Origin: Macrostomum lignano
Taxonomy: Eukaryota
Direction of reading: 5' to 3'
Length of the DNA: 21,887 nt
Assembly (NCBI GenBank): GCA_002269645.1
Contig: NIVC01005199.1
Coordinates: forward strand, 1-21,887
Part shown: positions 17,761-18,630 of the stretch, one piece after another
Layout: each line of letters opens with the position of its first letter
Numbering within the stretch: position 1 is the stretch's first letter
The notes under the pieces: generated by a model
Told to the model about the DNA's origin: nothing
Seen by the model: only the letters and a program-made list of their open reading frames with translations
Databases searched by the model: none
Translations under genes and position numbers: made by a program

Positions 17761-18420
17761 CTAAATGTCTGAAGTGGATCTGACTTCAAGCAGGCTTGCA
17801 AAGTTGTTTTCACAACGGCGCTCAATAGCCGACTTGAATTTCAGGATGGTATCCATAGAGTATGATGAGCAGAGTAGACCACGATATCGCGATGCGAACT
17901 TTGCAAAGTTGGCTAGACGTTCGGTGTACTTGACGGCTATCTTGAGTTTGATAGCGATGGCGGAGTAAGACCTCTCTTCTGCTGTAGATAGATGATCAGA
18001 CGTCCTTGGGCAAAGTTGGCTAGACATTTAATGATATCTAAATCCTCAACAAGTTGAACTAAATCCTTAAACCGGGTCTGAATCTCAGAATCTTCCAAAT
18101 CCTCGCTGTCATCAATCGGCCGAAGAAGATCCTCAAGTCCATCGAATCGTGTTTTAACAACAACATCATTGCGAAGATTCTCTTCTATTTTCGCTTGCAG
18201 CCGTTGAAGGAATCGGCGAACTTCCTCATTCTTGTCGATTTTTTTCTCTTCCTTCTTAGCTTTCTTCGTCTTTTCACTAACAGCTTGTTCCAGTTTCTCA
18301 AAATTTCAAAAGGGCTCGGCGCTCCTCATCAGATAGTTTAGTAAGTTCTATCGTTAAAGATCTTTGGTCTCGTTTTGATACTTCACTAAATAAGTTAGCT
18401 ATTTCAATAGCGCTATCCAT
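17761..18420 (-). CDS. Uncharacterised coiled-coil / helix-turn-helix-like protein (~220 aa reconstructed, 2 frameshifts)
   Basis: ACAAA-ATG at 18420 (MDSAIEIANLFSEVSKRDQRSLTIELTKLSDEERRALL), then an open frame EKLEQAVSEKTKKAKKEEKK...LANFAQGRLIIYLQQKRGL, then SAIAIKLKIAVKYTERLANFAKFASRYRGLL to TAG 17761. It may extend ~80 nt further. Confidence 0.55.
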
Positions 18421-18550
18421 TTTGTAGTATAATCCTATAAGGCGAGGTTAGTGGCGGTGCAAGTCAAAAATAAGAAGTTGCTGGCGCGGCGAGGTTAGGC
18501 AAAGCAGGGCGAAGCGGAGCAGGTGGGGCGAGGGCGGTGTGAATGGGCTG

Positions 18551-18630
18551 TATATATACCATTGGTGTGGGCTCGAGAATCCACGGATTCTCTTTTTGTT
18601 CTAGAATATTCAAGAATTCGAATTCTAGAA
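18551..18630 (-). promoter_or_regulatory. Candidate heat-shock-responsive Pol II promoter: TATA box plus canonical HSE
   Basis: TATATATA at 18551-18558. TTC(18599)-GAA(18604)-TTC(18609)-GAA(18614) sit at exact 5-bp phase, with an extra TTCTAGAA at 18623-18630. There is no ATG between the TATA box and the start at 18420. Confidence 0.65.

Follow-up and report, generated by a model that had tools for sequence, protein, structure and literature searches.

Does the right end of a Polinton in Macrostomum lignano place a gene of this inherited, virus-like element under the control of the heat-shock factor (HSF) of its host? A previous reading of the sequence alone (the sequence-only reading) had proposed an hsp70-like promoter here, and a motif scan of the window, i.e. 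the whole 21,887 nt stretch of contig NIVC01005199.1 that was analysed, found the heat-shock element (HSE) it had claimed present as stated: GTTCTAGAATATTCAAGAAT at 18598–18617 is a perfect HSE with four phased units. It is the sole perfect HSE of at least three units in the 21.9 kb, and when the element was shuffled 2000 times with its dinucleotides preserved, a four-unit site turned up in 16 cases. According to PMC9157408, a promoter responding to this factor holds at least three alternating nGAAn units; the HSE of the window has four. Judging from the sequence and from the comparisons given below, it is quite probable that the cassette around this HSE functions as a promoter that places accessory regulators under HSF.

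In this cassette, here called type I, the additional TTCTAGAA expected at 18623 is present (18623–18630) but does not keep the phase of the four-unit site; among the homologous copies it carries no substitutions and is deleted at L100, L104, L109 and L120. The palindrome with 8 bp arms, GAGAATCC-AC-GGATTCTC, is located as proposed (18575–18592) between the HSE and the TATA box, but its perfect form occurs in just 3 of 39 copies, while the form that is conserved (33 of 39) is GAATCCnnGGATTC at 18577–18590. The TATA box, TATATATA (18551–18558, minus strand), stands 39 nt from the HSE, close to the 40 nt read earlier, and the leader had been correctly described as free of ATG: none occurs across the 130 nt separating the TATA box from the ATG at 18420 (start context ACAAAATGG). 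Core promoter and leader occupy 18421–18550 (minus strand), where the start site would lie near 18520–18525. Further upstream on the minus strand are CTATAAATAG (18649–18658), absent from a subgroup of family B described below, and CTAAAAATAA (18742–18751), which we take to be MEF2-like sites, as we do CTAAAAATAG of the host hsp70 promoters. The latter is found between two HSEs in 16 of 18 host hsp70 promoters, and the two window sites, which resemble it, precede the type I cassette.

The cassette is single-copy in a 16 kb Polinton/Maverick (adintovirus-like) element at 3444–19486 with the ends AGTAG...CTACT, and is situated just inside its right TIR (18798–19486; left TIR at 3444–4125). The TIR length of ~680 bp and the AG...CT termini agree with those that characterise Polinton/Mavericks. 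The flanks of the window copy, CACCTG and GTCCTT, give no 6 bp TSD; since 15 of 20 sampled relatives do have one, the TSD belongs to the family and the window copy is probably rearranged or mis-assembled at its left end. A 31 bp tandem repeat (3276–3443) adjoins this left terminus, and further out an exon of ribosomal protein S2 (562–840) is adjoined by a long 21 bp minisatellite of ~80 copies (848–2650), from which long spurious ORFs result. In the 764 Mb assembly the terminal 16-mer occurs 362 times, corresponding to ~180 elements, some of them assembled twice.

Searches against Pfam gave matches above cut-off in the window for the A32-type packaging ATPase (8163–8963, plus strand; PF04665, E 3e-6) and a protein X (mu)-like core protein (15165–15449, minus strand; PF05829, E 2.5e-7), and in sister copies for the protein-primed DNA polymerase B, which lies in pieces at 11059–14877 (minus strand; PF03175, E 1e-4 in the window and 5e-8 in a sister copy), and the rve integrase, broken in the window (15460 to approximately 16451, minus strand; PF00665, E 4e-10 on the C581 allele). 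Below the cut-off were the pieces of the major capsid protein (5018–6143, minus strand; PF21738, E 2e-4 on a sister copy that is 97% identical over 5254–6944), a fragment of an adenain-like cysteine protease (10639–10971, minus strand; PF00770, E 0.004) and a PLA2-like gene broken in the window (16482–16951, plus strand; PF08398, E 5e-4). Seven 21 bp tandem copies are found upstream of the ATPase gene (7956–8145). According to PMC8502044, adintoviruses and Polinton-Mavericks have the core genes, the TIRs, the 6 bp TSD (seen here in relatives) and the PLA2 and pX module in common with the element; in the main text of that paper the words 'promoter', 'stress' and 'RING' have zero occurrences. 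When the reading frames were compared with those of contig C581, which is the same insertion as the window (with the same right flank; 97.7% identity over 17600–18797 with 22 gap letters), the integrase and accessory frames were both open on the latter. Contigs of four public sequencing runs, which cover 27–30 of 30 bins of 8200–18795 and give no start, strand or level, show numerous single-base indels relative to the window. Both observations suggest that the frame breaks of the window are probably assembly errors or allelic.

The accessory gene behind the cassette (17612–18420, minus strand; candidate polyadenylation signal 3' of it at 17048–17053, minus strand) is frameshifted in the window assembly and open for 273 aa on C581. 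For the gene proposed at ATG 18420 the start could be upheld, being common to C110, C298, C1293 and C4223 (271–274 aa) and to C5239 (89 aa), i.e. with a full-length open frame at four of five further loci, but the frame of the window itself closes after 40 codons. The region 3' of the gene (17180–17560) is rich in short dispersed GGATTTT repeats, and GGATT/AATCC is also frequent in the TIRs. The gene represents a family, A, with 118 matches in the genome and 77 relatives in the 50% library, ten of which were looked up and carried no informative name; it could be one of the unnamed 'Adintoc' groups mentioned in PMC8502044. Values of dN/dS for the accessory genes were 0.13–0.32 (six of eight pairs scorable), which points to purifying selection. 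The idea that a second family, B, is unrelated to family A was dropped, as a deeper profile links them (probability 92, E 6e-7), family B being a remote relative through the C-terminal domain. In several clades (loci L008, L014, L016, L049, L056, L099, L100 and L119) a GT-AG intron is situated at one conserved family A codon, consistent with nuclear Pol II transcription; the window clade is without it. Intact copies of vertebrate Mavericks are intronless according to PMC8097293, whereas the accessory genes here have introns.

Word-indexed homologue searches among proteins of near length revealed nothing for family A or B. For family A no Pfam entry matched consistently and sequence searches of the PDB yielded no E below 0.11; the ESM Atlas returned unnamed clusters with weak HTH leads. 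Against viral models Foldseek had nothing at E ≤0.001, no relative appeared when viral contigs were scanned twice, and a metagenome scan gave one locus; one distant relative adjoins a homologue of a gene of the window element (E 3e-9). The AF2 model of the protein (pLDDT 85, against 48 for a single-sequence model) consists of a helical N-terminus, a long helix at residues 111–150 and an HTH-like unit, and for residues 131–219 the top-ranked solved folds are the DNA-binding domains of KorB, ParB (Spo0J) and SopB (Z 5.3, rmsd 2.9, 78 residues). A Z below 8 may reflect a common arrangement, and the ParB/KorB-type match is weak in Foldseek (E 0.8; at least 0.6 for the matches overall). In contrast to these proteins, with which family A has 10–18% identity, weak scores and no Pfam match, an antiparallel coiled-coil dimer via helix 111–150 is predicted; the N-terminal CTPase of the ParB/KorB type gave no Pfam match, the fold matches spanning residues 131–219 only. 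The homodimer through the long helix scored 0.75 and the best control 0.02; the mark applied was passed by 21 of the 30 pairs of solved structure and by none of the 23 single chains (17 of 29 and 0 of 30 for eukaryotes), and the contacts agree to at least 65% with a pLDDT of at least 76. The modelling thus supports a dimer, and the family A protein is predicted to be an HTH DNA-binding protein.

Copies of the type I cassette were collected by a DNA search, i.e. by their similarity to the cassette itself, and 40 of 113 candidates were scored, giving 39 counted loci (L146 was missed by the alignment anchor). L144, where a four-unit site in sequence that is otherwise unrelated precedes a gene truncated at its 5' end, was left out as possibly due to chance. 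The copies are related, some being the same insertion assembled twice, and are not independent for statistics. The block of HSE, palindrome and TATA box is common to copies with differing genes, representing six clades of family A and one of family B, and the four HSE units are intact in 37 of the 39 aligned copies; the exact type I island was found at 46 sites in the genome, among 526 four-unit sites starting with TTC (control 107). At the one distant relative with DNA context, no HSE was found.

The variation among these copies bears on whether the array is a neutral passenger, i.e. a TTCTAGAA tandem that slippage produced and that was carried along as the element was copied, or a site bound by another factor. 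An HSE is a short palindromic tandem of a kind that slippage could create, and sites of three units are also found within internal tandem repeats, far from a gene start. Among 25 haplotypes, none of the 12 core columns and none of the 6 distal ones has a shared variant, whereas 3 of 8 spacer columns and 17 of 109 flank columns do; the difference between core and spacer speaks against a passenger. Taken together, 0 of 18 GAA/TTC columns and 20 of 117 others have a shared variant (p 0.045), the 12 core columns alone giving p 0.12; with this borderline constraint, and with the whole type I cassette being well conserved and not the HSE alone, the columns are weak evidence for HSE function within type I. 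Survival through rearrangement is stronger evidence. At L053 and L128 the array has been remodelled yet retained, at L122, L124 and L131 the island has been transferred to a different promoter, at an internal site, and local deletions at L100 and L104 have spared the four units. In favour of a passenger, on the other hand, the HSE is frequently lost, derivatives that keep the core promoter being found at ~10 loci (L055, L111–L116, L123, L149 and L150).

The passenger explanation also has to account for a second cassette, which was revealed when whole elements were sampled. The sample comprised 20 elements with paired termini, 11–23 kb long, taken in contig order from the first 100 termini listed; it omits C110 (type I), C217, C422 and C716 (22–24 kb), one 32 kb element and four short pairs. 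Gaps of 0.2–2.8 kb were left unread in three of the 20, and five were known beforehand to carry type I. One perfect four-unit HSE was found in 12 of the 20, against 0.13 expected, in every case at most 2.4 kb from a terminus and never in a mapped core gene, and in ten of the 12 it stands immediately before a TATA box and a gene; controls in which the motif was reversed or its units were set 1, 3 or 4 nt apart gave 0, and the zero-spacer control gave 3. Five of these elements carry type I and seven a type II cassette, consisting of a GAA-start HSE 11–13 nt before TATTTAA. The two types align at the HSE alone (best match E 0.017), and since the copies are related and some are duplicated in the assembly, the 12 elements represent about two origins. 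Two unrelated cassettes, each with exact 5 nt phasing beside a TATA box where the expectation for a perfect four-unit HSE is ~1e-4 per 300 bp, together with the retention through remodelling and transfer, make a neutral passenger improbable. Shown are the motifs, their position in the slot and, for about half of the family, the recurrence in two cassettes that are unrelated: the recurrent heat-shock promoter module is real, and it is probably functional.

Behind type II are found a spliced C3HC4 RING-finger gene (C14, C106 and C739; PF00097), a 225 aa member of the HTH family (C66 and C142) and family A itself (L044), and in the type II elements C70 and C658 the core promoter has been replaced. 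At L186 (541–1105, minus strand), L196, L213 and L229 the type II HSE precedes a two-exon gene, with an 88 nt GT-AG intron, that ends in a C3HC4 RING finger; we presume a likeness of the RING-finger gene to ICP0 of herpesviruses and IE2 of baculoviruses. In the whole genome the pattern of a GAA-start HSE, 9–14 nt and a TATA box gave 56 matches (control 0), of which 40 are type II, with the element context checked for ~10 of them, 14 have one shared sequence, the one that was read being a host HSP20 gene, and two belong to a single unassigned site. Types I and II then amount to ~86 sites for ~180 elements, in agreement with the 12 of 20 in the sample. On C273, C1391, C1113 and C1638 multiple family A/B genes with cassettes lie within tens of kb, which suggests nested or tandem elements, and inside the Polinton copies L189 (C33) and L178 (C110) lie retroelement-like insertions whose frames resemble those of a reverse transcriptase and a recombinase.

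As controls in the host, seven matches to HSF DNA-binding domains were identified in the genome, and a four-unit HSE is present in all 18 hsp70 upstream regions read (L061–L078). The gap between the proximal HSE and the TATA box is 12–13 nt in the four host hsp70 promoters measured against 39 nt in the window, and the claim that the spacing here is that of hsp70 could not be maintained; it is type II, with its 11–13 nt, that has the same spacing as the host hsp70 and hsp20 promoters. This spacing, and the HSE, TATA box and CTAAAAATA motif in common, would be expected if the element had captured a host hsp promoter. Alignment of either cassette to the 18 hsp70 upstream regions, however, showed no similarity outside the motifs (best E 0.34 and 0.1), which largely refutes a capture for hsp70, the gene covered by the comparison, and indicates that the likeness is convergent. 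A captured hsp promoter is consequently a very improbable origin, and the designation hsp70-like is justified at the level of motifs but not as common descent.

The position of the cassette is not fixed to one gene. At five loci (L036–L039 and L042) the same gene, with an 89–92% identical protein, stands behind an unrelated, HSE-less promoter, and most promoter classes are without an HSE; the classes share modules. The sequence TGA(C/G)TCA, which we assume to be an AP-1-like site, occurs in 7 of 14 HSE-less classes, being found upstream of L056, L059, L099, L119, L134, L154 and L161, and there are promoter modules common to families A and B. Promoters and genes have been swapped in a variable slot beside the TIR. 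As the gene is also found behind HSE-less promoters, and as 8 of the 20 sampled elements are without a perfect four-unit HSE, the HSE cassette is swappable and dispensable. Three elements (C166, C522 and C570) are full-length with a TSD and have neither such an accessory gene near either end nor a cassette. The cassette is best explained as one among several sensor promoters that can replace each other, and not as an obligatory master switch.

An HSF-responsive promoter of a regulator, as claimed in the earlier reading, gains support from the two unrelated cassettes, the strict position in the accessory slot, the host HSF and hsp controls and the predicted dimeric HTH product, with HSF binding, induction and any downstream effect being what we infer from them. 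With an HSE in 12 of 20 elements, in two unrelated versions, the elements likely use a host stress factor to switch on regulatory genes, and on these grounds we consider it likely that HSE and TATA box let the host HSF switch on the Polinton accessory gene for the predicted dimeric HTH protein. Under heat, proteotoxic or infection stress, host HSF trimers would bind the four units, Pol II would start ~30 nt past the TATA box and the early accessory gene would be transcribed. The HTH dimer or the RING-finger product may then be an immediate-early factor that targets either the DNA or transcription of the element itself or the silencing by the host, and elements that lack a cassette could be supplied in trans.

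Carried further, the HSF-driven accessory proteins would start replication and particle formation, in the manner of prophage induction. Both cargos, the predicted HTH dimer and the C3HC4 RING finger (PF00097), look like immediate-early regulators; HSF2 promotes lytic genes of KSHV and EBV at ORF50 and BZLF1 (PMC12047821), and in the gonads of heat-shocked Drosophila subobscura a Polinton family is up in all samples, in some by less than log2FC 1 (PMC10627563). Against such a full switch stand the elements without the cassette, full-length ones with a TSD among them, and the core genes, in which no target site is visible: the palindrome GAATCCnnGGATTC might, speculatively, be an operator, but the window holds no second copy of it and hence no target is seen in the core genes. 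Moreover, Maverick particles had not been observed according to PMC8097293. We regard the full switch as rather doubtful. Equally tentative is the broader picture of an animal Polinton stress circuit, in which a swappable slot by the TIR would hold a sensor promoter and an immediate-early gene, with heat-shock promoters of at least two separate origins driving either an HTH family, dimeric and so far undescribed, or a RING ligase of ICP0 type, activating a helper-independent element. If this is true, other sensor promoters, e.g. of AP-1 type, would give the Polinton family several triggers.

The HSE may instead serve HSF activity other than that under heat, either for expression in the germline and stem cells or for detecting that a helper virus has infected the cell. 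HSF1 has a role in gametogenesis (PMC8442575) and becomes active when several viruses infect (PMC9157408), and expression in the germline would benefit an inherited element most. The architecture, however, is that of the inducible hsp70 and hsp20 promoters of the host, and we find this alternative unlikely compared with a promoter responding to stress.

Mobile elements and viral promoters driven by HSF are already known. ONSEN and other heat-responsive Copia elements, as described in PMC7329337, likewise have their own HSF-bound element and a recurrent heat responsiveness, but their HSE is part of the LTR and controls the element in its entirety, whereas here it is outside the TIR of a DNA virus-like element and precedes one exchangeable accessory gene. 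The Helitrons of Caenorhabditis, which as DNA transposons are the source of many HSEs in an animal genome (PMC6927752), differ in that their HSEs act on neighbouring host genes, while here a single HSE and TATA box are aimed at the element's own gene. Host HSF also acts on promoters of latent viruses, by the HSE of the EBV Qp and by HSF1 at the HIV LTR (PMC9157408), and on a lytic switch gene in the case of KSHV ORF50 and EBV BZLF1 (PMC12047821), but these viruses are unrelated and the module found here is a perfect one of hsp type, swapped among the genes of an inherited family. No description of an HSE promoter in Polintons was found in the open-access literature searched, and in that respect the cassette appears to be new.

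Reactivation by giant-virus infection has been described for virophages; for integrated animal Polintons the literature found describes no trigger. A perfect and recurrent HSE points to a particular host factor, to a condition and to a pair of early genes, and thereby makes the question of the trigger experimentally approachable. It also gives a first regulatory context, together with a fold, to a widespread unnamed protein family, and Polintons supply a notable share of the strong HSE-TATA modules in the genome of Macrostomum lignano. At L227 (C1937, ~41460–41600) a dense HSE array stands before a TATA box, the 500 bases that follow hold no long ORF, and a heat-induced non-coding RNA or a spliced gene is possible there.
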